From contig NC_086104.1 of assembly GCF_963921235.1 (NCBI RefSeq), forward strand, positions 54,064,001 through 54,128,000: a DNA stretch of 64,000 nt, given 5' to 3'. How positions within the stretch are numbered: position 1 is the stretch's first letter; every line of letters begins with the position of its first letter. This document shows, in pieces, positions 1,207 to 53,804 of the stretch. Both the position numbers and the translations under genes were made by a program. This DNA is from Mobula hypostoma. Taxonomy: Eukaryota. A model generated the notes under the pieces. It saw only the letters and a program-made list of their open reading frames with translations. It was not told the origin of the DNA and did not search any database.

Positions 1207-2608
1207 CAGGGATTGTTCGCCCACTGTCACATCCCACAGAAAAATCAATGGAATCTTGCAATCACAACATAAAAACTTGTTTCTTTGAGTATTTGCAATA
1301 GTTGTTAGTACAAGTTATGACCTGAAATTGAAAGAACTTCCATTTTAGCATAATCAACATGATCTGATCAACATAGCAAAACAGGGCAATAGAAGACAAC
1401 TTATTCATAAAACGTTGCAAAATTATATGTAGGTACATGACTTATGTCCAAAACCAAAAGACAATGTACCTAATTAAATTACTTATTTTTAAAGACTCAA
1501 TAAAGAAGGCCATTTTCTGTCTCTTTGGGACTTTAAAACCGCTTTCCTTTAATGTCTGGATTTTCCCCATCAAGCAATATGCCATCCTTATCATTGAAAA
1601 TCCTTACGTAATTGATCTCAAATGAAATTTCTAAATATACAGCTCGAGTGGAAAAGTCAGCAAAGTACATTTTAACCAGTATGGTGGAAGCACTAGCTGT
1701 ACAATATCCCGGACATTGACTGAATTCATTTGGCAGCAGATAGTTGGACAGCAAGAATTAAATCCATGCCATGCCCAATTTTTTAAAAAATCTGTCTTTA
1801 GTCTATAAATGGGACGGTCATCTTATATATTCATAGTAAATAATTGGCTATTCTTTTGTTGTAAATTAATACAATGTGATGTTTCTTGCAATTGTTTTTT
1901 CCTGAAAATGAGGCTTTCATAATATTTTAACCCTTTCATTAAACAACCAGAACAATATATTTTGGGATATGGCTATTCAGCCAGTTATGTCCATACAAAC
2001 AAAACAAAAATGACCATTCAACTTACTAGTTTGTAGTTCATGACCTTGCTAGGGTAAGGCATCTCAAATAATTGTCCAGGTTCTTATTACAAACTGTGTT
2101 GAGGACCCTGTCCCTACAACATATTCAGACAATGAGTTACAGATCTCATTAAACTCCTGGTGAAAAGATCTTGTGAATGCCCCTTGAAATCCCCCCAAAT
2201 GTCTTAACAATTAAAAAAAATTACTAGGTTATAATGATTTAAATATAATAGGTCTGTCCAGGTCCTTGAATTTGATTAAATCTCCTGTACACCCTTTTCC
2301 TCCAAAGAAAATTTCAAACCAGCCAATCTCCCTGGATGATTGGGATTCTACAGCTTTTGTGTTTATCATTATATATAAAAAAATAACTACAATGGCCCTG
2401 AGTTGTTTGATCCTAATCCAGGAAAACCTGATAATAACTCAAAAATTTAAAAGAATAAAAAAGCAGAAAAAAACCATGGGTTCATTATTTAGACCTCATC
2501 AACATCTTCAGAAGAGCCAAAAATCTGAAATAATGAACCACCTTCGTCAAGTGTTAACATTACAATTTTTTCTATTTTACCACACAATAAAAGCATGATA
2601 AAGGACAC

Positions 2609-2822
2609 AAACACAAGGAAATCTGCAAATGCTGGAAATTCAAGCAACACACATAAAAGTTGCTGGTGAACGCAGCAGGCCAGGCAGCATCTCTAGGAAG
2701 AGGTACAGTCGATGTTTCGGGCCAAGACTGACAAAGGCTGTCGGCCCGAAACGTCGACTGTACCTCTTCCTAGAGATGCTGCCTAGCCTGTTGTGTTCAC
2801 CAGCAACTTTTATGTGTGTTGC
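2609..2822. mobile_element. Penelope-like insertion made of two inverted terminal copies, with a 14-bp TSD
   Basis: TSD ATGATAAAGGACAC at 2595-2608 and 2823-2836. Arms 2644-2723 and 2743-2822 are reverse complements at 76/80 positions and match the 3' end of 49329-50585. Confidence 0.9.
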
Positions 2823-3029
2823 ATGATAAAGGACACTGTGTTTCCTTTAATTCAGTATTCATCATCTCAGGCTTTAATGGAGATTCCTACTAATAACAAC
2901 ATCTAAAACCTTAATATGATGCTGTTACATGAACTGAACTCTTTGACAGTGATTCTGCTGGAGCAAAATGTCTTGACTACTTCTGAAAAGACACAATTCA
3001 GGAACAGTGTTACTAGCTATTAACTCTGC

Positions 3030-3293
3030 CATTGATAGTCCCGAGCCCAGCTGTGAAAGGAGGAGGTTAGGCATGGGGCTAGCAACCCATCCCTTAAAAA
3101 CCAAGTGCCACAGAAACATCAACAAAGCTCATTCCTGTGAGAGGAAGAATCTTCACCTTGAAGATGGATTAAGTTGTGTGGTGAAAGCAGAAGCCACAGG
3201 GCTGATCAACTGTTAGCACAGGACAGGGGATTCTAGCAAGATGCTGTTGGCAGCCTGTGCCCCAGTAGGGGTGATAGGCTTAAGAAGCAGAAG
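3030..3293 (+). mobile_element. Short RTE-related non-autonomous element
   Basis: RTE-5'UTR-like GGAGGAGGTTAGGCATGGGGCTAGCAACCCATCCCTTAAAAA, ending in GGGGTGATAGGCTTAAGAAGCAGAAG with an (AAG)n-like tail. Confidence 0.5.
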
Positions 3294-5829
3294 TTATCAG
3301 CTATTGGGATGGACCAGTTTCTTTAAATTTTATTTCTTGATCAACTTTTCTGTGAAATTCATGGTTCATAACTATATTCTGATACTACTCATTAGCCTAT
3401 TCTTTGATCAGAACTTCCCAAGTGAAAGCCCAGAATGCAGAACACAAAATAGACCCTGTAAAATTGGAGTTCTAAACCCAAACCATGTTTCCTCCTATTC
3501 AGCTTAATTTGTGGAATTCCGGGAGCTGTTGTGAGATCCATAGAGATTTTATTCCCAATTTTTTCTGCTGTAAAGTTCATTTTCATGCAGAAGTAATTAC
3601 AATTCTGTAAATGGAGAGGAAGACCTGCTTCATAATATTCCTTCTTCAAACATTGCAAAGAATATGGTCATAAATCTCATTGACCTTACTTTATGAATAG
3701 CAGCAATAATAATTTGCATAATAATAGTCACTATAGATTAAAAATAGCTCATTGTAAAACACTTTGTGCCATCAAGAAAACATGAAATACACAAGACAAA
3801 ATCTTATTTTCTTTGTCACTGATAATGAACAAAAAGTCACAGTCTCTATTAATTCATCAGCGCCTTTAAATAAGAATTGTTAAGTACCAGTGTCTGGAAT
3901 CAAATCAGTATGGAATGACATCTATTCCATATCCTTTTAGTATAGAATGACATATAAGCAACAATGTGGAGAAATGCAAACATAGTAGATAGGAAAAGTA
4001 AAAGTAACCAAATTATTATTGCTCAGTTAGTAATTTGTTTTCAGCTTTGTCAAATACATATGTGTTATTGCATTGCTATTCAGCTTCCAACATTTTATTA
4101 GGTTTGTTCAGATTATCTTCCATTCTTTCTTCTCTCTGTCACCATGTGACATTTGGAATGTGTTTTGTTTTTGCTGTTGATATTGAAAGGGATCAGCAAA
4201 AGTACCTCCCAATGATGGCACAGCCATTCACATTGTAAACATAACCAAGGACACCTCTTTGCATGAAAACAGTAGAAAACAATTATTCAGCCACTTGGAA
4301 TTTGATTTTCAAGTAATTTAACCAATTATCAAATTGAAATTAAATTGCCAAATCTAATTGTTCATTAAAGTGAGCTTCAGTTTCTTCTGCTATTTATTTT
4401 TATAGTATTGCTTTCAATGCCCTAGGCTATGGATTCACAACGTGTGCACATGCCTGAATGGCTAGTGATGATGAATTAAGTCCTAGAATTTCCCCTACTA
4501 TTCAATTTTGAAGATTTATGAGTGATCCCAATCATACTTGATGCATATGGGTTTTGGGTACCACTCTTGGGCAGCATCGAAAAGCTGGGATTCTAGCAGA
4601 CTTAATACTCATTAAATTATGAAAATAGATATAAACTGATGCAACCTGCCATATGCATTTTGATGCAAGTTAGTTAGCACAGCACAACCATCAAACCAAT
4701 ACAATGGAACCAAACTCTTTTCTTTGAGGACACTGCCTCTTTGTGTGGGCTAAATAATATAAACACCTTACTTGTGTATATATTGAAATGCTCTGTAATT
4801 TGAAGGAACTGCAATAAAAGAGTAGTTCGCTCTAAAGTTATGCAAATATATTTAATTGAAAATATAATTGTTTCTTTTTGTTTCGTTGAAATACCAAACG
4901 CTTTTATGTCACTTCTGAAACAATAGTGTATTGAAACAATCAATTGAAATAGAGGAGCTTTCCATCTAAATAGGAAAAGCAAGATAAAAGCACCAGATTC
5001 ATTCTCAATAAACAACTCAATATGCAAACTGTTTTTAAAGGTGTTCACTTTTTGGAAGACACATATAGTAAGTTCTTTGAACCTTTTGAGAAACAAAAAA
5101 GCCAGTATTTTCAGTCACTGCTATACAGCATCTAACTTGTTTGCTGTCATTGCTGACTGAGATCAAGAACACAAGTTGTACAATCACTGAAAGTTAGCCC
5201 ACAGATTGTGGAATCAGTTCACTACTCTACTACCAATTGCCCAAGATTCCTGCCTTCAGGAATAAGTTTTAGTATTATTCTATGAAATTTGCCGTTCTAT
5301 AAAAATAAACAGTTTGCTGTAATCCATGAGTTTTGGCATAGGTTTTTGTGAACAATGGGGAGGGAATGGGTTTATACTGAATACAAATCTCATATGATAA
5401 AATTTAAATTATTTATTAAATACAGCCAGTCACCAGGTTATGACAGGGTTCCAATCTTGAGAACGGTTTATAACCAGAACTGCTTCTCAGTCAGATTGGT
5501 GGGAAGATGGGTTGCCAACCAGTCTCACTGTCTCAGTGATTGAGCTAGTGAGTCTGCACAGTTCTCCCTGCCCTTCTTGGCCCCACCCAGCTCCCAATTC
5601 AGGTGGCCGGGTGGGGCATGGGGTGGAAAGGCAGAAGTGCCCCATTCTGATGTAGCAACAGATACTCGCAGATTCACAGCAGCAGGACAAATCTATTCTC
5701 CCAGTCTTCCAAATGTTGTTTATATGTTTAGGGTATCATAAATCAAGAGTGAGCTTTGAAATAATTCCTTAAATATTCACTGGCTCCAATTGACACATCG
5801 AGCTTTATTACACCAGCAGTTGGTCTGCA

Positions 5830-22744: not shown

Positions 22745-25700
22745 ACAAGAGTTCTTCCTGTCCTTCCTACCATCCCATTAGCCTCCTCATCCAACACATC
22801 ATTCCCTGCAACATCCACCATTTTCAAAGGGATCATACCGCTAAACATATCTTTACCTCCTCCCCCCACCCTGCTTTTCATGGAGTTCACTCCTTCTGCA
22901 AGTTGAGAGGGATAAGGGCAGATCAGAAGTGTCAGTATTGCAGTTGAACAAAGGAGACTATGGAGCCATGAAGGAGGTGCTGGCCAAAGTTGACTGGTCG
23001 GATATCCTAGCAGAAAAGACAGTGGAACAGCAATGTCAGGTATTCTTGGGAATAATGCACAAGGTGCAAAATCAGTTCATCCCCTGGAGAAGGAAGGATT
23101 CAAAGGGGGGAAAGTAGCCACAGTGGTTGACAAAGGAAGTCAGAGATAGCATAGCATTAAAAAAGTATAACAGAGCTAAGGTGAGTGGGAAGACGGATGA
23201 TTGGGAAATTTTTAAGGAGCAACAGAACTTAACTAAAAAGGCAATATAGGGAGAAAAAATGAGGTATGAACGCAAGCTAGCTAGGAATATAAAGGAGGAT
23301 AGCAAAAGTTTTTTTAGGTGTGTGAAGAGAAGGAAGATAGTTAAGAACAATGTTGGGCCCTTGAAGAATGAATTAGGAGAAATTGTTATGGGAAACAGAG
23401 AAACGGCAGACGAATTTAATAAGTACTTTGGATCTGTCTTCACTAGGGAAGACACAAGCAATCTCCCAGATGTATGGATGGGCCAAGGACAACAGGGTAA
23501 CAGAGGAACTGAAACAGATTGACATTAGAAAGGAAACGGTGATGAGTAAACTGATGGGACTGAAGGCTAACAAATCCCCAGGTCCAGATGGTCTGCATCC
23601 TAGGGTACTAAAGGAGGTGGCTCTGGAAATTGCGGATGCATTGGTGATCATTTTCCAATGTTCCTTAGATTCAGTATCAGTTCCTGAGTATTGGCCAATG
23701 GCTAATGTTATCCCACTTTTTAAGAAAGGAGGGAGGGAGAAAACAGAGAACTATCACCCTGTTAGCCTAACATGAGTAGTGGGGAAGATGCTAGAGTCCA
23801 TTATTAAAGATGAAATAGCGGCATATCTTGATAGCAGTGATAGGATTGGGCCGCGCCAGCATGGATTTACCAAGGGCAAATCATGCTTCACTAATCTATT
23901 GGAGTTTTTTGAGGATGTAACCAGGAAGATAGACACGGGAGATCCAGTGGATGTGGTGTACCTTGACTTTCAGAAGGCATTCGATAAGGTACCACATAGG
24001 AGGTTAGTGGGTAAAATCAGAGCTCATGGCATTGGGGGGAGGATATTGACATGGATAGAAGACTGGTTGGCAGATAGAAAGCAAAGGGTAGCAGTGAATG
24101 GGTGTTTCTCGGAATGGCAGATGGTGACTAGTGGGGTGCCACAGGGCTCGGTATTGGGACCACAGCTGTTTACGATTTACGTCAATGATTTAGAGGAAGG
24201 CATTGTGAATAACATCAGCAAGTTTGCTGATGATACTAAGCTGGGTGGCAGTGTGACATGTGATAAGGATGTTAGGAGAATTCAAGGTGACTTGGATAGG
24301 CTGGGTGAGTGGGCAGAAACTTGGTAGATGGCGTTTAATGTGAGTAAGTGTGAGGTTATTCACTTTGGGAGCAAGAACAGGAAGTCAGATTATTACCTAA
24401 CTCCACACCGTTCAGATAAGGGAGAAATACAAAGAGATCTAGGAGTACTTGTTCATCAGTCTCTTAAGGTGAATGAGCAAGTGCAGCAGGCAGTGAAGAA
24501 GGTTAATGGAATGTTGGCCTTTATTACAAAGGGAATGGAGTACAAGAGCAAGGAAATCCTTTTGCATTTGTACAGGGCCCTGGTGAGACCACACCTGGAG
24601 TATTGTGTGCAGTTTTGGTCTCCAGGGTTAAGGAAGGACATCCTGGCTGTGGAGGAGGTGCAGCGTAGGTTCACTAGGTTAATTCCTGGGATGTCCAGAC
24701 TGTCTTACGCAGACAGGTTAGAGAGACTGGGCTTGTACATGCTGGAATTGAGGAGATTGAGGGGGGTTCTGATTGAGACATATAAGATTATTAAGGGATT
24801 GGACAAGATAGAGGCAGGAAATATGTTCCAGATGCTGGGAGAGTCCAGTACCAGAGGGCATGGTTTAAGAATAAGGGGTAGGTCATTTAGGACAGAGTTG
24901 AGGAGGAACTTCTTCTCCCAGAGAGTTGTGGAGGTGTGGAACGCGCTGCCTCAGAAGGCAGTGGAGGCCACTTCTCTGGATGCTTTCAAGAAGGAGCCAG
25001 ATAGGTATCTTATGGATAGGGGAATCAAGGGTTATGGGGACAAGGTAGGAACCGGGTATTGATAGTAGATGATCAGCCATGATCTCAGAATGGTGCTGCA
25101 GGCTCGAAGGACCGAATGGTCTACTTCTGCACCTATTGTCTATTGTCTTCTATGATTCCTTTGACCACTAGTACCTCCTCACTAATTTCCTTCCCGGTGC
25201 TTATCTCTGCAAGTGACCCAAGTGCCACACCTGCCAATAAACCTCCTCCCTCTCCTCTATTAAGGGCCCCAAACAGTCCTTCCAGATGAGGAAACACTTC
25301 ACCAACAAATCTGCTGAAGTCCTCTATTGTGTCTGGTGCTCCTGATGCGTCTTCCTCAACGTTGGTGAGATCCATTGTAAACTGAGGACACATTTTGTCG
25401 AGCACCTCCGTTACATCTGCCACAAGAGCCATCCGTTGTTGTCTCATTTTTACTGTGTACTTTACCAGCAGTTATGGTCAAAATGACAATAAAAAGTGAT
25501 TTGACTTGATAGCAGAACTTCCTGGTGGGCAAGGTCTTGGCCCCCTCTTTCCTCTCCTATCAGATTCCTTCTTCTCCAGCCATTAACCTTTCACACCCAC
25601 CAGGCTTCACCCATCACCTTCCAGCTAGCCTCCTTCTGCTCCCCCCACCTTTTTATTTATGAATCTTATCCATTCCTTCCTAGTCCTGAAGAAGGACCTC

Positions 25701-33039: not shown

Positions 33040-36000
33040 GCTGAAAGTCAAAGGTAAAGTCCTGCACAGAGTTAAGTAGAAAGCTAAAAAGTAGGACCAC
33101 AAGGGTAGTAATTTCCATCTTGCTGCTTGTGCCACACAGCAGTGAGGGTAAGAATGGAATAATTTGCAGATGAGTGCATAGCTGACGAATTGGTTCATGG
33201 ACAGATTTTCATATTTCTGGATCATTGGGAATGGTATGACCTGTACAAAAAGGATGAACTCAAGGACAATCAATATCTTTGTGGGAAGATTTTCTAGAGC
33301 TTTTGGGGAGAGTTTAAACTAATTTGGCAGGGGAATGGAAACCAGTGTGATAGGGCTGAGGATGGGCTAGATGGCATAAAAGTGGGTGCTGTGTGTAGAG
33401 AAACCGTGAGGAAGAATAAGCAAATAATAGTGCAAAACTGCAGTCAGTGAGATGAATTAAAGTGCAACATAGGGTAAAATTGATAAAAACAGGACTGAAG
33501 GTGTTATATTTGAATGTATGCAGTATACAGAATAAGGTAGATATCAAGATGCACAGTGAAAGATGTCATTGTGGGCATCACTGAATTGTGGCTAAAAGAA
33601 CATCATCACTGGGAGCTTAACATGTAAATAAACACACTGTTTTGAAAAGTACAGGCAGGGAGGCAGAGGGGGTGACGCGCTCTATTCGTAAAAAATTAAA
33701 TCAAGTTGTTAAAACAAGCTACATACAATCAGAAGATGTAGAACCTGGGTAGAATTAAGAAGCTGAAAGGGTAAAAGTGACCCAGATGGGTGTTATATGC
33801 AGGCCTGTGAATAGTACCCAGGATGTGGAATACAAATTACAACAGGAGATAGAAAAGGCACATAAAAAGGCCAATGTTTCCATGATCATGAGGGATTTCA
33901 ATATGCAGGTAGATTGAGGAAAAGAGGTTGGTACTGGATCCCAAGAGAGGGAATTTATAAAATGCCTACAAGAAGGCCTTTTAGAGCAAGTTATGGTTGA
34001 GCCCACTTGGGGAAAGATGATCCTGGATTTGGTGTTGTGCAATGAACAAGATTTGATTAGAGAGCTTTAGGTAAAGGAACCTTTAGGAAGCATTGATCTT
34101 TATACGGCAGAACTCACCCCACAGTATGAGAAGGGGAAAAAGTCAGATGTATCATTATTACAGTGGTGTAAAGGGAATTAAATAGGCATGGGAGTGAAGC
34201 TGGCCATAGTTGATTGGAAAAGGACACTAGCACGGATGGCAGCAGAACAGCAAAACCTGGGGTTTCTGGGAGCAAATTATAAAGCACAGCATAGATGCAT
34301 CCCAAAGAAGTAATAAGGAGAGGATGATGTGACGGCAGTTGACAAGGGAAATCAAAGATAGCAAAAAAGCAAAAGAGGACATATAATACAACAAAAAATA
34401 ATGGGAATGTAGAGCATTAGGAAGCTTTTGGAAAAGAAGGGAAATAAAAAGCTCTAGAGAGAAAAGATTCAATATGAAGGTAAGCTAACCAATAATATAA
34501 AAGAGAATACAAAATGTTTTTCAGGTATATAAATAGTCATAGTCATATTTTATTGATCCCAGGGGAAATTGGTTTTCATTACAGTTGCACCACAAATAAT
34601 TAAATAGCAATAAAACTATAAATAGTTAAATAGTAATATGTAAATTATGCCAGAAAATAAGTCCAGGACCAGCCTATTGGCTCAGGGTGTCTGACCCTCC
34701 AAGGGAGGAGTTGTAAAGTTTGATGGCCACAGGCAGGAATGACTTCCTATGACGCTCTGTGTCGCATCTCAATGGAATGAGTCTCTGGCTGAATGTACTC
34801 CTGTGCCCACCCAGTACATTATGTAGTGGATGGGAGACATTGTCCAAGATGGCATGCAACTTAGACAGCATCCTCTTTTCAGACACCACCGTGAGAGAGT
34901 CCAGTTCCATCCCCACATCATCACTGGCCTTATGAATCAGTTTGTGGATTCTGTTGGTGTCTGCTACACTCAGCCTGCTGCCCCAGCACACAACAGCAAA
35001 CATGATAGCACTGGCCACCACAGACTCGTAGAACATCCTCAGCATCGTCCGGCAGATGTTAAAGGACCTCAGTCTCCTCAGGAAATAGAGACGGCTCTGA
35101 CCCTTCTTGTAGACAGCCTCAGTGTTCTTTGACCAGTCCAGTTTATTGTCAATTCGTATCCCCAGGTATTTGTAATCCTCCACCATGTCCACACTGACCC
35201 CTTGGATGAAAACAGGGGTCACCGGTAACTTAGGTCTCTTCAGGTCTACCACCAGCTCCTTAGTCTTTTTCACATTAAACTGCAGATAATTCTGCTCACA
35301 CCATGTGACAAAGTTTCCTACCGTAGCCCTGTACTCAGCCTCATCTCCCTTGCTGATACATCCAACTATGGCAGAGTCATCCGAAAACTTCTGAAGATGA
35401 CAAGACTCTGTGCAGTAGTTGAAGTCCGAGGTGTAAATGGTGAAAAGAAAGGGAGACAAGACAGTCCTCTGTGGAGCCCCAGTGCTGCTGATCACTCTGT
35501 TGGACACACAGTGTTGCTAGCACACGTACTGTGGTCAGCCAGTCAGGTAATCAATAATCCATGACACCAGGAAAGCATCCACCTGCATCACTGTCAGCTT
35601 CTTCCCCAGCAGAGCAGGGCGGATGGTGTTGAACGCACTGAAGAAGTCAAACACCATGACCCTCACAGGCTCGCTGGCTTGTCCAGGTGGGCGTAGACAC
35701 GATTCAGCAGGTAGACGATGGCATCCTCAACTCCTAGTCGGGGCTGGTAGGCGAACTGGAGGGGATCTAAGTGTGGCCTGACCATAGGCCGGAGCAGCTC
35801 CAGAACAAGTCTCTCCAGGGTCTTCATGATGTGGGAGGTCAATGCTACTGGTCTGTAGTCATTGAGGCCGCTGGGGCGCAGTGTCTTCAGCACAGGGATG
35901 AGGCAGGATGTTTTCCACAGCACAGGAACCCTCTGGAGCCTCAGGCTCAGATTGAAGACATGGCGAAGTACTCCACATAGCTGAGGGGCACAGGCTTTGA

Positions 36001-38215
36001 GCACCCTGGTACTGACACCATCTGGTCCTGCAGCTTTGCTCGGGTTGAGACTTTTCAGCTGTCTTCTCACCTTCAGCTGTGAAGCCCACCTTGGTGGTTT
36101 CGTGTGGGGAGGGGTATAGTCATGAAAGCAGGGTGGGGGACTGTGAGGAGGGGTAGGAGGGGAGAGTGGAATATGTGTTGGTCAGGGGCCGACAACAGAT
36201 GACTCACGTGGGGGATGGGGAAGGGACAATGTCAAATCTGTTAAAGAACAGGTTAAGTTCGTTGGCCCTATCCACACCGCCTTCAGCTCCTCTGTTGCTA
36301 GTTTGCCAGAACCCAGTGATGGTCCTCATCCCACTCCAGACCTCTCTCATGTTGTTCTGCTGGAGTTTCCACTCAAGCTTCCTCCTGTACCTGGCCTTAG
36401 CCTCCCTGATGCTGGCTTAGAGAGAGAGAGACAAGAGTGGATATTGCATGGCTGGATATTGCAAGACTGAGAGAGAGACAAGAGTAGAAATTGCATGGCT
36501 GGAAAATGACGCTGAAGAGGCAGTAATGGGGGACAACAAAATACTGAATGAACTTAATAAGTTTATTGCAACAGTCTTCACTGTAGAAGACAGTGAGAGT
36601 ATAACAGAAATTTGAGTGTGTCGGGAGACAGAATTGAGTGAAGCTGCTATTACTAAGAAGGCACTTGGGATGCTAAAAGATCTGAAGTTAGACAAATCAC
36701 CTGGACCAGATGGAAACACCCAGGGTTCTAAAAAAGGTAGTTGAGGAGATTGTGGAGGCACTAGCAGTGATCTTTCAATAATCACCAGATTCTGGAATGG
36801 TTCCAGAAGACTGCAAAATTGCAAATATCACTCCACTCTTTAAGGAAGGGAAGCAGAAGAGAGGGAACTATGGGCCAGTGAGCCTGACTTAAGTGGTTGG
36901 GAAGATGTGAGAGTCCATAATTAATGAAGACATATCGGGGTTCTTGGAGGTACATGATAAAATAAGCCATTGTCAGCACGGTTTTCTCAAGGGAAAATCT
37001 TGTCTGAAAAGTCTGTTGAAATTCTATGAAGAAATAGCAAGCAGGATATATATAGGAGAGTCAGTGGATGTTGCTTATTTGGATTTTCAGAATGCCTTTC
37101 ACAACGTACCACACATGAGTCTGCTTCACAAGAGCCTGTGGTATTACAGGAAAAAAACCAACATAGATAGAAAATTGGTTGACTGGCAGGAGGTAAAGAG
37201 AGGGAATAAAGGAGGCCTTTTCTGGTTGACTGCCGATACTGCTGGGGTTGGTGTTGGCACTGCTTCTTTTCATATTATATGTCAATAATTTGGATGATGG
37301 AATTGATGGCTTTGTAGCCACATTTGCAATTGATATGCAGGTAGGTGGAGGGGCAGGTAGAATTGAGGAAGCAGGGATTCTGCAGAACTTAGATTAGAAT
37401 TCGCAAAGAAGTGGTAGACAGATATAGTGTAGAGAACTGTATAGTCATGAACTTTGGTAGAAGGAATAAAGGCACAAGAGTATTTTCTAAACAGGGAGAA
37501 AATTCAAAAATCAGAGCTACAAAATGACTTGGGAGTCCTCATGCTTGATTCCCTTAAGTTCAACTTGCAAGTTGAGTCAGTGGTAAAAAAAGCAAATGCA
37601 AAGTTAGCATTCATTTCAAGAGGACAAGAACATAAGGGCAAAAATGCGATGCTGAAGTTTGACAAAGCATCGGTTAGTCTACACTTAAGCGTATAGTGAG
37701 CGGTTTTGATCCCCTTATCGAAGTAAAAATGTGCTGGCACTGGAGAAGGTCCAGAGGAGGTTCACAAGAATGACCCCAGAAATGAAAACTTTAACATATG
37801 AGGAGAATTTGATAACTCTGGACCTGTACTCACAGGAGCTTAGAAGAATGAGGTGGATCTCATTGAAACCAATCAAATATTGAAAAGCCTAGATGAAGTG
37901 GATATGGAAAGGATGTTTCCAATACTGGGAGAGTCTAGGACCAGAGGGCCTAGCCTCAGCATAGAGGGACGTCCATCTAGAACCGAGACAATGGTGAATC
38001 TGTGGAATTCATTGCCACAGAAAGCTGTGGAGTCCTCGTCGTTGTATATCTTTAAAGCAGAGGTTGACAGGTTCTTAATTAGTCTGGGTGTCAAAGCTTA
38101 CAAGGAAAAGGTAGATGAATGGGGTTGAGAGTGATAATAAATCAGCCATGATGCAATGACAGAGAATAATCCATGGGCTGAATGGCCTACTTTGGCTTTT
38201 ATGTCTTATAGTCTT
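33040..38215 (+). mobile_element. Long degraded CR1 LINE (ORF1 end, APE endonuclease, RT, 3' end) split by a Rex1 insertion
   Basis: LKVLYLNVCSIQNKVD at about 33495, MRDFN at about 33890 and ILDLVLCNE at about 34020. After 36420: KSPGPDG, QHGFLKGKSCL, YLDFQNAF, and a CR1 3' end at about 38210. Confidence 0.85.
34534..36417 (-). mobile_element. Young 5'-truncated Rex1/Babar LINE
   Basis: ORFs 35663-36070 (KAAGPDGV...NDYRPVALTSHIMKTLERL...DPLQFAY) and 34674-35507 (GAPQRTVLSPFLF, FSDD, YKYLG). (TAGTCA)n tail. Confidence 0.95.
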
Positions 38216-39433: not shown

Positions 39434-40717
39434 TAGATTAGATTGAACTTTGTCATTGTGCTGAATACAGATACAAAGACAATGAAATGCAGTTACCATC
39501 CAACCAGAAATGCAAAGAATAGTGTTATTTACAAAATAAGTGTGAATAAAAAGTAAGTGCTACAGCACACGAATATAAAAGTACTGAGACAGTACAATAT
39601 GAGCGCAATACTGCTTAGTGCTGTGATGTGAGGTTCAGCAGTATCATAGCCTCAGGGAAGAAGTGATTCCTGTACCTGCTGGTGCGGGAGCAGAGGCTCC
39701 TGTAGCGTCTACCTGATGGGAGGAGAGGAAAAACTCCATGGTTAGGGTGAGATGCTGGATAATGCTTTTTGCCCTGCCCAGGCAGCATTTATGGTAGATG
39801 TTCTCAATGCTGGGCAATTGGGTGCTGATAATCCACTGGGCAGTTTTCACCACACGCTGGAATGCTTTGCGGTCCTATACGGGACAATTGCCATACCACA
39901 ATAAGATGCAGTTGGTGAGTATGCTCTCAGTGATACAGCGGTAAAAGTCTGTCAGTATCCTGGGACAGAGGTGAGCTTTCTTGATGCCCCGCAGGAAATA
40001 AAGGTGCTGTTGAGCCTTTTTGATCAGGATGGAGGAGTTCAGGGACCAGGTGAGATCCTTGGAAATGTGGACACCAAGGAATTTGAAGCTTGATACAGGC
40101 TTCACTACAGCTCCGCTGATGTAGACGGGGATGTAAGTGTAGCTTCCAGCATGCCTGAAGTCCACAATGATCTCCTTGGTCTTCTGGGTGTTAAGGGCCT
40201 GGTTGTTGTCAGCACACCATGCGGCCAGGTGCTGGACCTCATCCCTGTAGGCCGTCTCATCATCTCCTCTGATCAGGTCAACCACCGTGGTGTCGTCGGC
40301 AAGCTTGATTATGGAGTTAGAACCATGTACAGGAACGCAGTCATAGGTGAAAAGAGAGTACAGAAGAGGGCTCAGCACACAGCCTTGAGGCACGCCGGTG
40401 TTCAAGGTGAGAGTGGAGGAGGAGAGGTTGTCTAACTTAACTGATTGGGGTCTGTTAGTCAGAAAGTCCAAGGTCCAATTGCAGAGGGATGAGCTGATAC
40501 CAAGCTGGCGAAGTTTGGCGATCAGCTTGGAGGGGATCACAGTATTGAATGCCAAACTAAAGTCAATGAACAGCACTCTGATGTAAGAGTTGGGGCTGTC
40601 CAGGTGGGTCAGGGCAGAGTGAAGTGCTGTGGAGATGGCATCCTCTGTTGACCTGTTAGTGCAATAGGCAAATTGATGGGGGTCCAGGGTAGTGGGCAGA
40701 CAGGATTTCGGATGTTC
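39434..40717 (-). mobile_element. Rex1/Babar LINE fragment inserted in the Tc1 transposase
   Basis: ORF 39875-40729 ([40 protein letters not shown]). (TAGAT)n tail. The transposase frame resumes on both sides. Confidence 0.93.
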
Positions 40718-42759
40718 TACAGCTGTCAATCTGTCTAGAGCAGGCCATCCTCAAAAACTAAGTGAACCATGCAAAAAGGGGACTTGTGAGGAAGGTCACC
40801 AAGAGACCGATGTCAACTCTGGAGGAGATACAAGTTTCAGTGGCTGCGATGGGACAGACTGCGCATACAACTGTTGCCCAGGTATTTCAGCAGTTGTGCT
40901 TTATTAGAGAGTGGCAAAGAGAAAGCCACAGTTGGAAAAAAACTCATGAAATCTCGTCTAGAGTTTGCCAGAAGGCATGTGGGGCACTCTGAAGTCAGCT
41001 GGAAAAACAGCTTTTTAACCATCAGACTAAAACTTCTGTTTGGTGTAAGCCAAACACCGGACATCATCAAAACACACCATCCCTCCCATGAAGCATGGTG
41101 GTGGCTGCATCATTGTTGTGGGGATACATAAAGCCAAAGCAACACAGGAATGGCTTAAAAACAACAAAGTTAATGTCCTGGAGTGGCCAATTTACTGTCC
41201 AGATCTCCAATCTAATTGAGATTTTGTGGCTGGATTTGTAAAGGGCTGTTCACTAACAATCTCCAAGCAATCAGATAGAACTTGAGCAGTTCTGTAAAGA
41301 AGAATGAGAAAAATTTGGAGTGTCCAGATGTTCAAATCTCATAGAGACCTATCCACACAGACTGAAGGCTGTAATTGCTGCCAAAGGTGCATCTACTAAA
41401 TACCAACTGAACGGGGTGAGTAATTATGCAACCAATTATTTTGCGTTTAATAATTGTAATAAATTTAGACTAATTGGTAGAAATTTGTTTTCACTTTGCA
41501 CAAAACAGCTTTTTCTGTTGATCAGCGTCAAAAAAGCCAAATTAATTCTCCTGTGATTCAATGTCATATACTGTAACAATAAAAAATGAAAACTTCCAAG
41601 AGGGGCGAAAACTTTTGAAAGGTACTGTATTTACAAGGTCATGCCAAATAGTTATATGTTTGTGCATCTATTCTAGAACTTGATCTAGTGGAAAATGAGA
41701 ATGAAACAGGAGATTTTTCCAAATTGAGAGAAGATACAATATCATACACAACTCAAGAAAGAAAGATACCACACATAGAACACGAGTTGCTTTGAGAAAA
41801 TTAAAGGCATGAAAGGATGAATAAGCTAAATCTGTAAATTTTAGAATCTGAATCTGAATCTGACTGTTACTTCTCAACAGGGGAGAGAAGGTAAAAACTT
41901 TGTGTGTGGAAATGTATGACATTTATGTTTGAAACATGCAAACTACAATTGGAGTTGAATAAATCAGTTGCACTTGTTTGAACTTCTCCCATTGCTTCAT
42001 TATCTACATCTTCTGCATGCATCATGCTCAAAGTAAGGAAAACGTATAGTGCTGCTTTAAGAAAGAAACTAATATTGCAGATAACATTAGTTAAATCATA
42101 AAAGTTAATGTGGCCATTTCTTTTTAGTTTTCCCATCTGCTAACCTAATTCAGTTACACATGTATATCTCTTGTATAGTCCCAAAGTTAATACGTGGAAG
42201 TGAAATTGTTATATTGCAAATAGCTCACAAAACAGCCAACATTTTGTTTTAAGGAGATCCAGATAGTCTGGCATCCAGTAGAGGTTTGTTGTTTCTGGAT
42301 TCATTGTTGTTGAAAATAATGTTCAGATTGATAAGGAAATTATTCTTTGTTATTTCAGGGTGCATAGAATAAACTGCATGAAATTTTTGCTGACCATATG
42401 TTCTAATGAATTGATACAACATTGACTGACTTTTTAATGACACAAAGAAAGATAAAGTATAAAAACAGATCTGTTGAATCTCAATGTTCCAGCTTACCTT
42501 CACTTTGAGGAAAAAAAAATTACATTCTTTGATTTGAAAGCTTCCCCTTTGTTTCTTCCTGTCTTATGTTCAACAAGTTACTGTAACTACAGCGAGAAAC
42601 TCTGTTCATTCTGAAGCTCTTGAATCTTATTCCTTTGAAATGACCATCTTCCATGGCAGCAATCATCACATTAAGTGAAGCTTTTAAGAACATTACCAAC
42701 TGCCTTTTGACAATAACTTATTTTGTATTTTTTTCTCAAATCTAAACAAAATTTCATTG

Positions 42760-43960
42760 ATGAAGGACCAGCAGTAAACGTAGTGTATATGGATTTCAGC
42801 AAGGCATTTGATAAGGTACCCCATGCCAGGCTTATTGAGAAAGTAAGGAGGCATGGGATCCAAGGGGACATTGTTTTGTGGATCCAGAACTGGCTTGCCC
42901 ACAAAAGGCAAAGAGTGGTTGTTGACGGGTCATTTTCTACATGGAGGTCAGTGACCAGTGGTGCGCCTCAGGAATCTGTTCTGGGACCCTTACTCTTTGT
43001 GATCTTTAGAAATACCTGGATGAGGAAGTGGAAGGATGGGTTAGTAAGTTTGCTGATGACACAAAGGTTGGAGGTGTTGTGGATAGTGTGAAGGGGGTGT
43101 CAGAGGTTACAGCGGGACAGTGATAGGATGCAGAACTGGGCTGAGAAGTGGCAGATGGATTTCAACCCAGTTAAGTGTGAAGTGGTTCATTCTGGTAGAT
43201 CAAACAGGATGGCAGAATATAGTATTAATGGTAAGACTCTTGTCAGTGTGGAGGATCAGAGGGATCTTGGGGTCCGAGTCCATAGGTCGCTCAAAGCAGC
43301 TGCGCAGGTTGACTCTGTGTTTAAGAAGGCATATGCTGTATTGGCCTTCATCAATAGTGGAATTGAATTTAGGAGCTGAGAGGTAATGTTGCAGCTATAA
43401 AGGATCCTGGTCAGACCCCACTTGGAGTACTGTGCTCAGTTCTGGTCGCCTCACTACAGGAAGGATGTGGAAGCCATAGAAAGGATGCAGAGGAGATTTA
43501 CAAGGTTGTTGCCTGGATTGGGGAGCATGCTGTATGAGAATAGGTTGAGTGAATTTGGCCTTTTCTCCTTGGAGCAACGGAGGATGAGAGGTGACCTGAT
43601 AGAGGTATACAAGATGATAAGAGGCATTGATCGTGTGGATAGTCAGAGGCTTTTTCCCAAAGCCTCAAGAAGCCACAGGTTTAATGTGCTGCGGAGTAGG
43701 TACAGAGAAGATGTCAGGGGTAAGTTTTTTATTCGGAGAGTGGTGAGTGCGTGGAATGGGCTGCCGGCATCGCTGGTGGAGGCGGATATGATAGGGTCTT
43801 TTAAGAGACTTTTGGATAGGTACATGGAGCTTAGAAAAATAGAGGGCTATAGGTAAGTCTAGTAATTTCTAAAGTAGGGACATGTTTGGCACAACTTTGT
43901 GGGCCAAAGGGCCTGTATTGTGCTGCAGGTTTTCTATGTTTTCTATGTTCTATGTTTTCT
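42760..43960 (+). mobile_element. CR1 LINE 3' half
   Basis: ORFs 42723-43091 (YMDFSKAFDKVPH), 43128-43379 and 43422-43856. (TTTCTATG)n tail. Confidence 0.93.
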
Positions 43961-46975: not shown

Positions 46976-47377
46976 AAACCTGAGAATTTCTCTACTGAGA
47001 AATGCCAATAATCAGATGGGGAGAGGTTCCTCCTGACAGGATGGATTTACTCTTGCTTGAGATAGCCAAAGATATTGCCTCAGGATTGACCAGTGGTAAT
47101 GGCCAAATAGTATTTATTAATAATTTATTAATTTTCTACCAGCCAGTAGCAACTGATGCTGTCTTGACATCCATATACTGCCTAGCAGTTGCAGGGATGA
47201 TGCTTCCACTGGCTGGTATAACGAGGACAATAACAAGGAATTAGTCATCTCAGCTACAGGTGAAGAGAAATTTCTTCATTCAAGAGTAGTGAATATTTTG
47301 GAACTCACTAACCAAGAAGTTCACCAGGAAGAGACCAATTAAATTTTTAGATCTTAAGAGAATCAGGGGATATGGGT

Positions 47378-47608
47378 TGTTAATGTGTTGTGCAATTGAA
47401 AAGATTAAATTAATTAAAAGAAAGACATGGGAGACAAGAGATACAAGTGCATTAGATATATTAGCAAGGTGCACATGTGATGTGATGACATATGCCATTC
47501 TCATACTTCGTACATAAAACCATAACAACTGCTTAAACTTTAAACAACTGCTTAAACAATATATTTACTATGTGACTCAAATATTAGTGAAACATTAAAT
47601 ACACAACA
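47378..47608 (-). repeat. 3' LTR of the Gypsy element
   Basis: Shares TGTGCAAT, GAAAGACATGGGAG, GCACATGT, ATGACATAT.CCATTC, AATATATTTAC and ATTAAATACACAACA, in order, with 51822-52062. Confidence 0.85.
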
Positions 47609-48074
47609 CTCTTCCCTGCTTAGCTATAAACTCCAACTCAATATAGAATGTCTTTCAACTTGTGTACGTACAGTATATATGCAGTATACTATATAACTTC
47701 TATATAGGTATCCAATATTACTAAAATACTGAACACACACACTTCTCCCTGCTTAGCTATAAACTACAACTCAATAGAGAATGCGTCTCAACTATTGTAT
47801 ATACACAGTATACTCTATAATACAACTACTCTACAGACATCCACAGCATAGTAAACTTTAAATTGTCCCATTCGGGCCAAACAATTTATTTGTTGTGGAG
47901 GCTTTCTTGGTCTTGTGGTATAAAGTCTTTCCTGACAAGGGAGGTCACTCTGCTTGACAGGTGAGATTTGTGGCTTTGAGAACAACCTTTGGTTCTGGGG
48001 CCTCCTCTGTGGTGGCTGAAGGAGTTGAATATGAATCTGCAGGAAATGATTCTGACAGCTCTGGATACCTTTCT

Positions 48075-49183
48075 CCTTTTCTCACTGGATCTATTTTGGT
48101 TCGTCCTTATCTCCCAGTCATGGCTTCCTTCTCTCCCTTTATCCCACTCTCAATCACTTTCTCAATCGCACTCTCTTTCCTTATCCTTGGTTTTCTCACG
48201 ATCCCTATCACAGTCCCGATCTTGCTCTCACATTCATTCCCACTCTCTTTCATGTCTTTCTCTTTCTCACAGTCCTGTTATTTCCCTTCACCTTCTTGAG
48301 AAATTAGGTTCATTTAGCCACTTCCATTTCCATAGCACTTGTGTCATCCTCCTGTCGTTTCCATTCCCTTCTTTCTGTGATGTGCATTTGGTTCACTGGA
48401 ATATTCTCTTATTAGTTCTCCTATTGCTGTTCCAATATCTCTTTTCGGTTTCGTTATCCACAACAATAGTCTGGTGAATCCAATGTTTTCATATCTCCGT
48501 TAGCTCCTTTCTTTTTGGCCAATCAGCTGGGCTTTGGTCTTTGGTCTTTGCCTCTACTCTTACAAGCAGCTTTTTATATCCCACATGAAGTCAGTGCAAT
48601 AATCTTAATGCAATAAGAGTAGATTCTGGCTCTTTATGCTCACACGTGGCCAAGTGGTTAAGGCATTGGACTAGTGACCTGAAGGTTGTGAGTTCGAGAC
48701 CCCTGCCGGGGCAATGTGTTGTGTCCTTGAACAAGGCACTTAATCACACATTGCTCTGCGACGACATTGGTACCAAGCTGTATGGGTCCTAATGCCCTTC
48801 CCTTGGACAACATTGGTGTCGTAGAGAGGGGAGACTTGTAGCATGGGCAACTTCTGGTCTTCCATACAACCTTGCTTTAGGTCTGCGGCCTGGAGAGTGA
48901 AGACCTTCCAGGTTCAGAACCATGGTCTCGCAAGACTAACGGATGCCTTTATGCTCACAAAAGATGAATGCTTGCAACTTTCCTGAAGCATCTTGAACTC
49001 TCTTGCAGCTAGGACCAAGACACATTTCACAAGTAACTGTCTGATTAATACAGATAGGTTGTCCACAAAAACTGTTGTAGATGGACCATGACTTTCATCA
49101 CTTTCATGATTCCTCTGAGTAGCATGGTCCTTCCTTGGTCCAATATGCTTCCCAACTACGGTTACAGAGGTTGGCACCAATAC
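48075..49183 (-). pseudogene. RBM25: Intronless partial RBM25 retrocopy (RRM, linker, RE/RD-rich region), disabled and interrupted by a SINE
   Basis: Minus strand reads VLVPTSVTVVGKHIGPRKDH...GPSTTVFVDNLS, VLIRQLLVKCVLV, (frameshift) SCKRVQDASGKLQAFIFCEHKEPESTLIALRLLH*LHVGYKKLLVRVEAKTK, AKKKGANG, LIREYSSEPNA, AMEME..K*.LIS, DRDCDRDREKTKDKERE. This is colinear with vertebrate RBM25 from about residue 53 to about 390 as I recall the human sequence. Confidence 0.92.
48645..48946 (+). mobile_element. tRNA-derived SINE with a CORE-like segment and 13-bp TSD
   Basis: A box TGGCCAAGTGG, B box GTTCGAGAC, CORE-like GTGTCCTTGAACAAGGCACTTAA. TSD CTTTATGCTCACA at 48632-48644 and 48947-48959. Confidence 0.9.
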
Positions 49184-49328
49184 CTGTTTGCCCTCTGCTG
49201 GGCAACACTGCATGGAGACAGTTATGGATAGAAGTCCATTCAAGCTGTACTTGTCTCAGCCAATCAGGTCTCCACAACACTGGCCCTCCTGGTTTTACAA
49301 CATACAAGCTCACTGTGGCTTATTGATT

Positions 49329-50585
49329 CGCAAAGCCTACTGACTCTCACAGCTAGCTGGACTATTCCTCTTCTCGCCCTGTCTCTTGCAAAAATGCCAT
49401 CCCCTTCTCGCAATTCCTCCATCTCCGCCGCATCTGCTCTCAGGATGAGGCTTTTCATTCCAGGACGAGCGAGACGTCCTTTTTTAAAGAAGGGGCTTCC
49501 CTTCCTCCACCATCAACTCTGCTCTCAAAAGCATCTCCCCCATTTCACGCACACCTGCTCTCACTCCATCCTCTCACCACCCTACTAGGAATAGGGTTCC
49601 CCTGGTCCTCACCTACCACCCCACCAGCCTCCAGGTCCAACATATTATTCTCCGTAACTTCCGCCACCTCCAACGGGATCCCACCACTAAGCACAGCTTT
49701 CCCTCCCCCCCGCTTTCCGCAGGGATCGCTCCCTAAGCGACTCCCTTGTCCATTCGTCCCCCCCATCCCTCCCTCCTGGCACTTATCCTTGTAAGCGGAA
49801 CAAGTGCTACACAAGCCCTTACACTTCCTCCCTTACCACCAATCAGGGCCCCAGACAGTCCTTCCAGGTGAGGCAACACTTAACCTGTGAGTCAGCTGAG
49901 GTGATATACTGCGTCCAGTGCTCCCGATGTGGCCTTCTATATATTGGCGAGACCCGACGCAGCCTGGGAGACCGCTTTGCTGAACACCTACACTCTGTCC
50001 GCCAGAGAAAGCAGGATCTCCCAGTGGCCACACATTTTAATTCCACATCCCGTTCCCATTCTGACATGTCTATCCACGGCCTCCTCTACTGAAAAGATGA
50101 AGCCACACTCAGGTTGGAGGAACAACACCTTATATTCCGTCTGGGTAGCCTCCAACCTGATGGCATGAACATTGACTTCTCTAACTTCCGCTAATGCCCC
50201 ACCTCCCCCTCGTACCCCATCCATTATTTATTTTTATACACACATTCTTTCTCTCACTCTCCTTTCTCTCCCTCTGTCCCTCTGACTATACCCCTTGCCC
50301 ATCCTCTGGGATCCCCCCGCCCTTGTCGTTCTCCCTGGGCCTCCTGTCCCATGATCCTCTCATATCCCCTCTGTCAATTACCTGTCCAGCTCTTGTCTCC
50401 ATCCTTTCCCCTCCTGTCTTCTCCTATCATTTTGGATCTCCCCCCCCCCCCACTTTCAAATCTCTTACTAACTCTTCCTTCAGTTAGTCCTGACGAAGGG
50501 TCTCAGCCTGAAACGTTGAACTGTATCTCTTCCTAGAGATGCTGCCTGGCCTGCTGCGTTCACCAGCAACTTTGATGTGTGTTGC
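49329..50585 (+). mobile_element. 5'-truncated Penelope-like element (RT C-terminus, GIY-YIG endonuclease, terminal repeat) with a 14-bp TSD
   Basis: KPTDSHS.LDYSSS at the 5' end. ORF 49868-50092 (VIYCVQCSRCGLLYIGETRRSLGDRFAEH...PVATHFN). TSD GTGGCTTATTGATT at 49315-49328 and 50586-50599. Confidence 0.93.
50486..50522 (+). ncRNA. Minimal hammerhead-ribozyme motif in the Penelope terminal repeat
   Basis: AGTC-CTGACGA-AGG(GTCTCAG)CCT-GAAA-CG-TT-GAACT: CUGANGA and GAAA core boxes, short stem II, and palindromic AACGTT in place of stem III. Confidence 0.7.
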
Positions 50586-51821
50586 GTGGCTTATTGATTG
50601 CTGTATTTCAGTTACAAAATGTCATTCCCACAGGAATTTTCTTTTCTCCAGTATAAATTCTTAGATGGATAATGCAGTCTTTGTTTTAGTATCCTTAGAA
50701 GCCTGTTCAAACTCATTTTGTGGAATGACTGAAGCAACCGAGCCAGTGCCCAATTCCATTTTAATTAATTTACCGTTCACTTCCAGTGTAAGCTATTTTG
50801 CTTGTCTATTGTTAGATTTCACATTAAGGCTACTCAAGCTACCTAGTCTTACGTCACTCTCATCATTATCAGATTTTTCAACAACAGCATGCTCCTTTTG
50901 AAACTGCAACTTGACTTTTAGCTTTTTCTCTTCCCTGCACAGTCAATTTATTTTTTTATCTGCCTGACATGCTCTTCATATTTGATCTACTTTTTTGTAT
51001 TTTCTACAGTTTTCACCTTTAACCCTACATTGGTCTAATGTATGTGAGCCCCTGCCACAATGGTAACACAATTCATTCAGGCAAGCCAGTTTCTGTTTAG
51101 ACATTGCAATTTTGTTCATGCTCAATTCAATTACTGGCTGCAACTCAATTGTCCCTATCTGCTATTTCCATTGATACAGCTATTTCAACTGCTCTATTAA
51201 ATGTAAGCTGTGCTTCAGTTGGGAGCTGTTCTTGAATGCTTTCATGCAAGATTCCACAACTAAACTATCTCTCTATACATTATTCAGCCTATCAATGAAT
51301 TGACAATGCTTAGACAATTTCTTTAATTAAGCCATGTATACCGAAATGGATTTTCCTTCCTTTTGATTCCACTTATGAAACCTAAAACCATTCTGCAATC
51401 AATAATGGTTTTGGTTCTAAATGTTCCTGCATTACTTTCACAATATCAGCAAAGCCCATTTCAGCTGGTTTGGTTGGAGCAGTTGAACTTCAAAGCAAAC
51501 TATATGCCTTTAAACCCAATGCACTCGGCAAAACTCCTACACGTTTCTCATTGGCCATTTCACTTGCTCCAAAATACTGTTCAATTAGTTCAATTACAAA
51601 TATGCCAGTTACCTGTTGAACAATCAAATGCATCTTTCTTTCTGATATGGTCAGCTATTTCTGCTCTTTTTATATAATTATTATCATTATCTGGTACACA
51701 TTGCTTATGAACCAGTGTATTCTTAGCTTTCATGCCTTTTTTAAAAAAACTTGATAGTCTCTGCACATGCTGAACTGCTTTTTTTTTAACCCAACCATTG
51801 TTCATTTTAAAAATACTTCAT

Positions 51822-52062
51822 TGTTATGTTTGTGCAATCAAAAATATTAAACTGATTAATGGAAAGACATGGGAGGAGACAGATGAGTGTACATTAGTTT
51901 TGTTATACTTTTAGTGAGGCGCACATGTATCAATGTCGTGGCATAATGACATATACCATTCATGTATTTCATATATATGACCAGAATGAATTATTTAAAC
52001 AACAAAGGATGCTTAATAAAATAATATATTTACAATATTGCTCAAATATTAAATACACAACA
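51822..52062 (-). repeat. 5' LTR of the Gypsy element
   Basis: TGTTATG...ACACAACA, a diverged direct repeat of 47378-47608, located upstream of gag on the minus strand. Confidence 0.85.
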
Positions 52063-53804
52063 GGGGTCAGTGCAAAAAAGCAGAACAGAGCTAAAAGGTT
52101 ACCAGTTATCTTCTCGATCAGCAGAGCAGGTATGCAAGAGAAAATTCCTTCGTCCTGCTTCTGGTTCATTTGCTTTAAAATATTTAGAGGCACTGGATGA
52201 GGTGCAAATCGACAAGGTTTTAGGCAACAAAATATTGAATAGCACAATGCTCATCTCCCCGAAGATAAAAAAAATGCCAGAAAACTTATCAAAGTCCATT
52301 AAAAAGGGGATGTGGTCACAAGTTTAAGACAGGCAGATATTAATACAATTCATAATTTGAAAGAAAGTCATTAAACAATAGAATATAAAAATCAGTACCA
52401 TAAGGACAAAGGTAATTTGGTCAAAATTAGAGGTGGAATACACAGAGACTAGCATAGGACATAAAAAGTGACCAGAGTTAGGCCTAATTGCACATAATAG
52501 CCTATTTCTGGTAGAAATTATAATAAATACTCACTGATGAATCTGAGGATCTAAACTGTAACATCCATTAAGGAAGATACAATCTAGCTCTGTTCCTGTT
52601 TTACAGGTCAACTGTTTAACAGAACCAAGAATATCATAAGTGAAATCTACAGTATATAGTAATATTAAGGAAAAGTACATGTAAACAAAGACTGAAAGTT
52701 ACCAAAATGCCTCGTGTATAAATTTCTGAAAATGTGATGCATGCAATCTTGTAGTCATTTTAAAGCCAATCCTAATAAAAAAAACATTAAAACCTATCCT
52801 TTATATTCCTATTTTGGCAACGACATTTGACAACACATTAGCAGTAATGTGGATACCCATAAAAATGTTCACCCTGCAGAAGTTAAATACCATAACTTGT
52901 TGATAGACCGAAAGAAACAGTTCTGAAGATAGGCAAACCATTTATTCTTCAGCAATATTATAAACAAATAACAATGTAATTGTATAAAAGCTATTCAAAT
53001 ATACGAATTATTTTGTGCTCTAATATGAAACTTCTATCAGAATAACCATTAAGACATAATTTTGAATATAATCAGATATATGAATAATTCGTCCACCCTA
53101 CTCTTCAGTCCAATAGTTAACATAAGTTGCACTTTTATTTATTGGACAAAATAATATTCAAAACAACTAATTTGTTTAAACACATCTACCTTGACCCAAA
53201 ATAGTCTAAGAGGTTCCCCCCACCCCACCAGTGGCTGAATTATTCTTTAAGATAATGATTCCTAGAAATCTTGAAATACTACTTCTGTAAAATCTGTAAT
53301 CTAACAAGTGGCAAAAAGGATTTTGTACATTCAACAATCAATTCCCCTGAAGCCCACCAACAAGCTGATAAAACAGAACTAATCGCGATACTCTACATTT
53401 CAGTTTGACTAAAATTAAAACTAAATCTTCTAGTTGGTGTTCCTTTACAAAAAAAAACAGACAACCAACTAGCATTTTGTATAATTGGCAAATTAAATGA
53501 TAACACAAGCTACAAAGAAATAGTGACGCAATCAACACTCAGTTATACTGGAATATATCTGACAATTTTCAGAATATAAAATACAACATTTTGAAACTGC
53601 TATCATGGTTTCCTATTCTTCCACCTGATGTGCTGCTGATGTTTTCTCAAGTGTAAGCAGCAGAAATCTGCTGACTGCTGAGAATGTCTATTTATATCAC
53701 TGTAAATAAAATGGAAAATATTATATCTTGTTGAATGCAGCATAACTTTTTTAAAAAACATCAAATTGCTAGATTGAATGCTACATTTGGTAATGACTAC
53801 TTAC

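Follow-up and report, generated by a model that had tools for sequence, protein, structure and literature searches.

Introduction

Acutely transforming retroviruses have given up replication genes for host sequence fused to gag; they depend on a helper, need env and are selected for their oncoprotein. Capture of host messages by elements with long terminal repeats (LTRs) has also been described by Tan et al. 2016 (PMC5131818), whose account of LTR-mediated retrocopies of animals includes, among the cases presented there, secondary retroposition of the product as a non-autonomous element. The maize element Bs1 is reported to be transcribed and translated (PMC13317346). Here we analyze a 64,000-nt stretch of genomic DNA from the ray Mobula hypostoma (the window, on contig C22), in which positions 47378-52062 hold a Ty3/Gypsy retrotransposon whose pol core is replaced by a spliced piece of the host gene RBM25. 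We judge it roughly 85% probable that this chimera belongs to a non-autonomous, helper-dependent Gypsy subfamily that carries spliced RBM25 sequence as a passenger and arose by a double template switch.

Structure of the chimeric element

All positions are those of the window, and the assembly searched comprises 3.48 Gb in 200 contigs. Read on the minus strand, the unit runs through an LTR, gag, protease, the RBM25 piece, an integrase tail and a second LTR, is bounded by a 5-bp target duplication and is interrupted by two younger insertions:

52063-52067, minus strand: 5' copy of the 5-bp target-site duplication, one mismatch to 47373-47377
51822-52062, minus strand: 5' LTR with TG...CA ends, 241 nt
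50960-51658, minus strand: gag remnant with stops and frameshifts, CCHC knuckle near 51070-51020
50600-50800, minus strand: first part of the aspartic protease, catalytic motif decayed
49329-50599, plus strand: younger 1,271-bp insertion with a GIY-YIG remnant and a 14-bp duplication
49223-49328, minus strand: last part of the protease
49184-49222, minus strand: exon 3 tip of RBM25, then what is left (36 of 48 nt) of an alternative exon that lies in host intron 3
48960-49183, minus strand: RBM25 exons 4 and 5 and start of exon 6, spliced (first half of the RRM)
48645-48959, plus strand: younger 315-bp insertion with a tRNA-like head and a 13-bp duplication
48070-48644, minus strand: RBM25 from the rest of exon 6 through exons 7-9, which carry deletions, to the start of exon 10, spliced, ending in a 9-nt microhomology with the parent
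47850-48069, minus strand: C-terminal tail of Gypsy integrase, out of frame with RBM25
47609-47849, minus strand: 3' untranslated part, polypurine tract at 47620-47609
47378-47608, minus strand: 3' LTR
47373-47377, minus strand: 3' copy of the 5-bp target-site duplication

This order of parts had been proposed in an earlier reading made from the letters alone (the sequence-only reading), and the LTR pair, Pfam remnants and a protein match bear it out. The LTRs (52062-51822 and 47608-47378) are 78% identical, with a Kimura two-parameter distance of 0.264, and Pfam returns zf-CCHC_5 (E 0.0016) and gag-asp_proteas (E 0.021), both below the cut-off. The protein used for comparison, P0152, is a complete Gypsy polyprotein of 1,324 residues in which Pfam domains follow the order CCHC, protease, reverse transcriptase (RT), RNase H, integrase. 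Its match to the window is confined to residues 21-386, so RT, RNase H and the integrase core are absent from the unit, as the earlier reading had said; the sole endonuclease-like remnant between the LTRs is part of the larger insertion. The primer-binding site lies next to the 5' LTR in sister copies and is partly deleted in the window copy. The target duplication (52067-52063 against 47377-47373) shows the single mismatch claimed for it and stands at the ends of the unit, and other copies have duplications of their own, which agrees with the proposal that the chimera integrated as a unit. Both ends of the RBM25 part pass directly into parent-family sequence, and neither a poly(A) nor a target duplication surrounds that part, again as proposed. 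A further suggestion, that a single CR1 3' end results when the flanks are put back together, was not confirmed: nothing among the fetched loci spanned the joined flanks, and a genome search with the 3' flank gave one weak 62-nt match besides itself.

The two insertions had rightly been called later additions, as each has its own duplication and relatives at other loci (74-93% identity). The larger is presumably Penelope-like; the smaller is inferred to be SINE-like (short interspersed element) and has no Rfam match, and an Rfam scan of 47000-52500 returned one chance match only. With its gag stops and frameshifts, the window copy is dead, which had also been seen before. A 133-bp tandem duplication, private to the window copy (47606-47812), extends across the polypurine tract and the LTR start. 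Elsewhere in the window there are decayed reverse transcriptase frames of the long interspersed element (LINE) type, at 23776-24324, 34677-36181, 36911-37285, 39878-40750 and 42717-43088; a Pfam scan of the 20 long window frames found RVT_1 in 6 and a host-gene domain in none.

Origin of the RBM25 segment

The open frame of a sister copy, L022, has 220 protein matches, the best 120 of which all carry the RRM family; identity to the L022 frame is 61-79% among the matches listed, where the named proteins are RBM25 and the others are unnamed. The host gene was located at C1:99.79-99.84 Mb via the C-terminal part of a fish RBM25, and all nine exons delimited (9/9) have AG/GT ends; a Pfam PWI search retrieved other genes and not RBM25. 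Compared with the host transcript, the two RBM25 pieces of the window are identical at 233 of 270 (86%) and 465 of 565 (82%) aligned bases, and the copy passes 6 exon starts without intron sequence. The captured stretch covers host residues 53-390, so the residues and the joined exons of the sequence-only reading stand. Its start at 49183 does not: host-derived DNA reaches from near 49222 to near 48070, because 36 nt of a 48-nt alternative exon (49219-49184), missed at first, precede exon 4. The insert is thus composed of the exon 3 tip, the 48-nt exon, exons 4-9 and the start of exon 10.

The alternative exon was recognized because the 50 nt upstream of exon 4 have a counterpart in host intron 3, where a pyrimidine tract, an AG and a GT mark out a 48-nt in-frame exon. 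Contigs from public runs, none on record as RNA but presumed to be such, contain canonical joints from it to exon 4 in 3 of 4 runs and to a 30-nt small exon, absent from the element, in 2 of 4, which argues that it is a real spliced exon. Host RBM25 intron 3 accordingly holds two in-frame alternative exons, at L148:3786-3833 (48 nt) and L148:8676-8705 (30 nt). The 48-nt exon is not present in the bony-vertebrate RBM25 proteins compared; it differs at a single majority position, a CpG-type site, between the host and the old copies, and for this reason looks conserved in the host. In the captured isoform, exon 3 is joined directly to the 48-nt exon. The 120 kb around host RBM25 (L038-L049) contain two LTR-sized family matches, both in the stretch upstream of the gene, which suggests that solo LTRs are very numerous.

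Parent family and switch points

A pol-bearing parent family is present in the same genome. Among 30 loci chosen by gag alone, 8 lead into RBM25 within the fetched flank, 13 lead into RT-type sequence and 9 are uninformative. The domains of P0152 map onto parent loci in the order gag-protease-RT-RNase H-integrase expected of Ty3/Gypsy, and the family has TG...CA LTRs, a primer site, a polypurine tract and a target duplication in the 4-6 bp range, as in that group. From its resemblance, the parent may belong to the Mag-like clade. A word-based protein search with a protease frame found nothing among 364 candidates. The absence of the pol core and the presence of this parent agree with the claim that the chimera is defective and helper-dependent, its enzymes presumably being supplied in trans.

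At both ends of the insert, the parent and the host transcript share a short word exactly where the template changes. At the 5' switch, parent and host exon 3 have the 7-nt TGCCACA in common, after which parent copies go on into RT; the word is exact in 3 of 11 gag-picked parents compared, and the rest differ at one to three decayed positions. In the window copy ~75 nt of linker have been lost by a later deletion, including most of this microhomology. At the 3' switch, parent and host exon 10 share the 9-nt GAGAAGAAA, just before the integrase tail. A first locus set has 6 pol-bearing copies with a parent-type tail, 5 of which keep this word exactly; in a second set 2 of 6 such copies do, and the others have a mismatch or small deletion. 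Between these points ~3 kb of pol is replaced by ~1.07 kb of mRNA. Judged by sequence, the 7-nt and 9-nt matches have the signature of double template switching, and with the parent continuing into RT they uphold the template-switch capture proposed earlier. At the 3' join, the frames of RBM25 and the integrase tail do not agree. In chimeric and parent copies alike the tail is followed by ~110-240 nt and then the LTR, which leaves no room for env.

Other rearranged relatives were seen. Three of 20 parent-junction loci (L150, L157 and L165) derive from the parent by deletion, lack RBM25 and have a common junction that enters the integrase tail at one and the same purine-rich site; they probably represent a second non-autonomous subfamily and mark a switching hot spot. 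L094 (near 4946, element strand) retains RT and RNase H and passes into the integrase tail much as the chimera does at its 3' junction, making it a possible parent-chimera recombinant. In L097, a gag copy precedes a second gag-pro piece in inverted orientation. P0123, an unnamed 652-residue protein 55% identical to the family gag, runs through gag, protease and the start of RT and then an integrase-type tail; it has the look of a relative, in another genome, with an internal deletion.

Copy number, age and recombination

The sequence-only reading had allowed for an amplified chimeric family, and this is what the genome contains. A first search gave 29 other loci (two of them one element), with gag or protease upstream in 22 and the integrase tail downstream in 28, each within 1.5 kb; with a fish RBM25 as query, all 54 of 54 matches were intronless fragments, none of which reaches the C-terminal half. 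Junctions were then counted with 27-mers at up to 2 mismatches, using reversed patterns as controls. The chimeric 5' junction has 650 matches (control 0), the chimeric 3' junction 408 (control 1) and the parent 5' junction, with one degenerate letter, 1,799 (control 0), so that chimeras amount to about a quarter of the family's junction count. The 5' pattern detects 11 of 40 copies that were not chosen by it and the 3' pattern 15 of 83. Extrapolation from both junctions gives ~2,300 chimeric copies, with sampling error alone spanning ~1,500-4,500, the 40 being best-scoring matches and some of the 83 having no 3' end in the fetched stretch. Flanks are unrelated between copies, which have 5-bp duplications of their own: in 16 copies with both outer LTR ends the duplication is exact in 3, has one mismatch in 1 and two in 6, and thus has at most two mismatches in 10 of 16 copies as compared to 16% of shuffled pairs (0% exact, 2% one mismatch, 14% two mismatches).

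The median LTR-LTR distance of chimeras is 0.238 (24 of 55 loci measurable), and the distance in parents ranges from 0.15 to 0.33 (8 of 25 loci measurable). The chimeras are as old as the parents, so that helper and chimera spread together. A set of 83 copies, 86% identical to the host transcript, comprises 37 of a short class, 28 of a long class and 18 unclassified copies in a star-like arrangement; many short-class copies have the same deletion ends, and no substitution is diagnostic of class at p<0.001 (37 short, 28 long copies). In three public runs that carry the codes of other organisms, divergence from the host intron is ~1-8%, below the copies' own decay, and two of these runs contain exon 4-to-cassette joints with other letters between, as in diverged copies. 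Together these hint that the family may predate the splits from those organisms.

The gag-pro part of the same copies is more variable than the insert. In 54 chimeric copies, common non-CpG variants occupy 65 of 1,197 sites in gag-pro versus 8 of 573 in the insert (p 3e-5), and 52 of the 65 also segregate in 27 parents, as against 22% of control sites. The excess falls to two- to three-fold, and persists, when decayed copies serve as reference; third codon positions are weakly enriched (23 of 52, p 0.07). This variation fits a cassette that recombined onto several helper gag-pro backbones, with mutable sites as the alternative. Strand-biased editing was considered, and the excess of G>A over C>T is mild (0.094 vs 0.078), hence it is not invoked.

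Selection on the RBM25 part

Variants outside CpG-type sites were compared with a neutral expectation. Rare variants in the RBM25 part include 704 nonsynonymous changes versus 708 expected, the middle-frequency class 226 versus 214, and variants common to 12-50% of copies 47 versus 40. Where the majority of copies carry a letter other than the host's, 20 changes are synonymous and 1 is nonsynonymous, a pattern that continued constraint on the host gene would produce. A search for a copy with an intact frame, as the sequence-only reading recommended, found none among 70, as each has a stop or frameshift within the first 570 nt, and a stop at codon 16 is present in 18% of copies. With the same estimator, pairwise omega is 0.78 for the RBM25 part versus 0.55-0.58 for gag-pro, the latter possibly biased down by projection. 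The RBM25 part is most likely a passenger in neutral decay, which makes a role for a fusion less likely. The earlier wording that the element carried a host RNA-binding domain therefore stands for the DNA; for the domain itself, there is no sign of selection during the spread.

Proposed origin and alternatives

We propose that a spliced RBM25 mRNA, with exon 3 joined to the 48-nt exon, was packaged in a particle of the active Gypsy family. In a single capture, reverse transcriptase would have left the element RNA at the 9-nt match that immediately precedes the integrase tail, gone on to copy ~1.07 kb of RBM25 mRNA and returned to element RNA at the 7-nt match just after protease, thereby replacing ~3 kb that encode RT, RNase H and integrase. 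Because both LTRs, the primer site and the polypurine tract were kept, the enzymes of the intact family could have copied the chimera to roughly 2,000 or more sites during the parent's own expansion. A shorter deletion derivative may have become a second source, and the RBM25 part would have traveled as a passenger, all copies examined having since decayed.

Several observations weigh against this account. The direct exon 3-to-cassette splice is not among the joints listed (263 further joints lie outside that list), and outside the microhomology just 3 nt identify the exon 3 join. Of the 16 copies with both outer ends, 6 have 3 or 4 mismatches in their target duplication. Linkage among gag-pro variants is close to background past 30 nt, which makes recombination onto helper backbones a possible rather than a demonstrated step. 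The 5' join keeps protease and RBM25 in one frame, with the modal spacing in 41 of 65 copies and mostly small indels in the rest, and the commonest shared deletion removes the Glu/Arg-rich exons and spares the RRM. The in-frame join could be chance (one in three) or point to function, and the same holds for the RRM-sparing deletions, which could be chance events in purine-rich repeats. Finally, the selection test is weak for the founding template, because star-like copies leave little time for selection.

The in-frame join and the RRM-sparing deletions would suit a version in which the capture was the same and an in-frame Gag-protease-RRM product was made and aided the spread, for instance because it bound or packaged its own RNA or influenced splicing. 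The chimeras' share of the family's junction count is also in its favor, and the host-versus-copy synonymous difference of ~0.14, set against a private divergence of 0.09-0.10, leaves room for changes on the element's stem. Shared variants are, however, not depleted of amino-acid changes, the codon 16 stop is frequent and omega is higher in the RBM25 part than in gag-pro. Furthermore, the RBM25-free derivatives L150, L157 and L165 multiplied too, which indicates that being short with intact ends was enough for spread. We consider this version unlikely, and we are similarly doubtful that an expressed and advantageous fusion reached thousands of copies, or that the RBM25 copies fed back on host regulation.

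Capture at the DNA level or by splicing is less probable still. In this scenario, an element resided in RBM25 intron 3, its read-through transcript was spliced and only the 3' junction arose by template switching. Exon 4 starts right after a CAG in the element, which looks splice-like at first sight, and family LTRs lie within the 120 kb that surround the host gene. The CAG is host sequence, the last letters of the alternative exon, and not part of the element, and the true 5' junction lies inside exon 3, at the 7-nt parent match and at no splice site. The scenario was largely refuted when the stretch before exon 4 proved to be a host exon. Just as improbable is that a LINE made a processed pseudogene within a Gypsy copy, or that a cDNA was patched in, with later DNA duplication spreading the locus. 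LINE remnants are frequent in the window, but the insert lacks the mRNA 3' half with its poly(A) and a target duplication of its own, the ~3 kb of pol was lost exactly between two microhomologies, and the copies have unrelated flanks with their own 5-bp duplications.

If the double template switch with RBM25 as a passenger is right, one capture accident can grow into a major vertebrate repeat subfamily. Since the parent, the donor gene and both switch points survive together, the family forms an unusually complete natural record of template-switch capture, which also bears on a non-autonomous element competing with its helper. The copies preserve an ancient RBM25 splice isoform and provide thousands of neutral markers of one age; they will also confuse RBM25 annotation, read mapping and gene-family counts in these genomes.

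Comparison with described systems

A literature search found, among the papers listed, no publication on an RBM25-carrying LTR family, although a Repbase or Dfam consensus may exist, and the main text of a 2026 ray genome preprint does not mention RBM25. With respect to the acutely transforming retroviruses, the chimera shares helper dependence and a host fusion on the gag side; neither env nor an env-bearing helper goes with it, as the integrase tail nearly adjoins the LTR and leaves no space for that gene, and no sign of selection was seen, in tests of low power for the founding template. The sequence-only reading had likened the capture to that of transducing retroviruses; the mechanism is the LTR-mediated retroposition of PMC5131818, which is not peculiar to them.

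The closest match is with those LTR-mediated retrocopies, of which the RBM25 chimera shows the five features tested: host sequence flanked by discontinuous parts of one LTR element, an insert that is spliced and incomplete mRNA, microsimilarity at both switches, no poly(A) or duplication of its own, and secondary retroposition with shared switch points. It differs in age and scale, as the cases described in PMC5131818 are young and form single loci or few secondary copies, whereas this family is old and has at least 650 copies, and ~2,300 by extrapolation. In maize Bs1, as summarized there, host exons also lie between LTRs with switch points common to all copies, but that plant element has 1-5 copies and three donor genes, as compared to one donor, thousands of copies and neutral decay here. 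The human HERV-K/FAM8A1 fusion, cited in the same paper, likewise has an mRNA piece in an LTR element, microsimilarity at the fusion points and no present activity; its carrier is retroviral, and it is described there as a single case. The endogenous retrovirus (ERV) captures of crocodilians, KIT-ligand in CrocERV29 and nectin3 in CrocERV31 (Chong et al. 2014, PMC4299795), are also spliced host mRNAs multiplied within old vertebrate LTR lineages. By that report they are retroviral, kept pol, number nine and six copies and show purifying selection on the captured frames, whereas the RBM25 chimera is a Gypsy element that lost pol and in which no selection was detected. The mechanism is thus already known from the cases of Tan et al. 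(PMC5131818), and what is unusual is the copy number, which is 1-9 in the published cases compared, as far as these are described, and two to three orders of magnitude higher in the RBM25 family.

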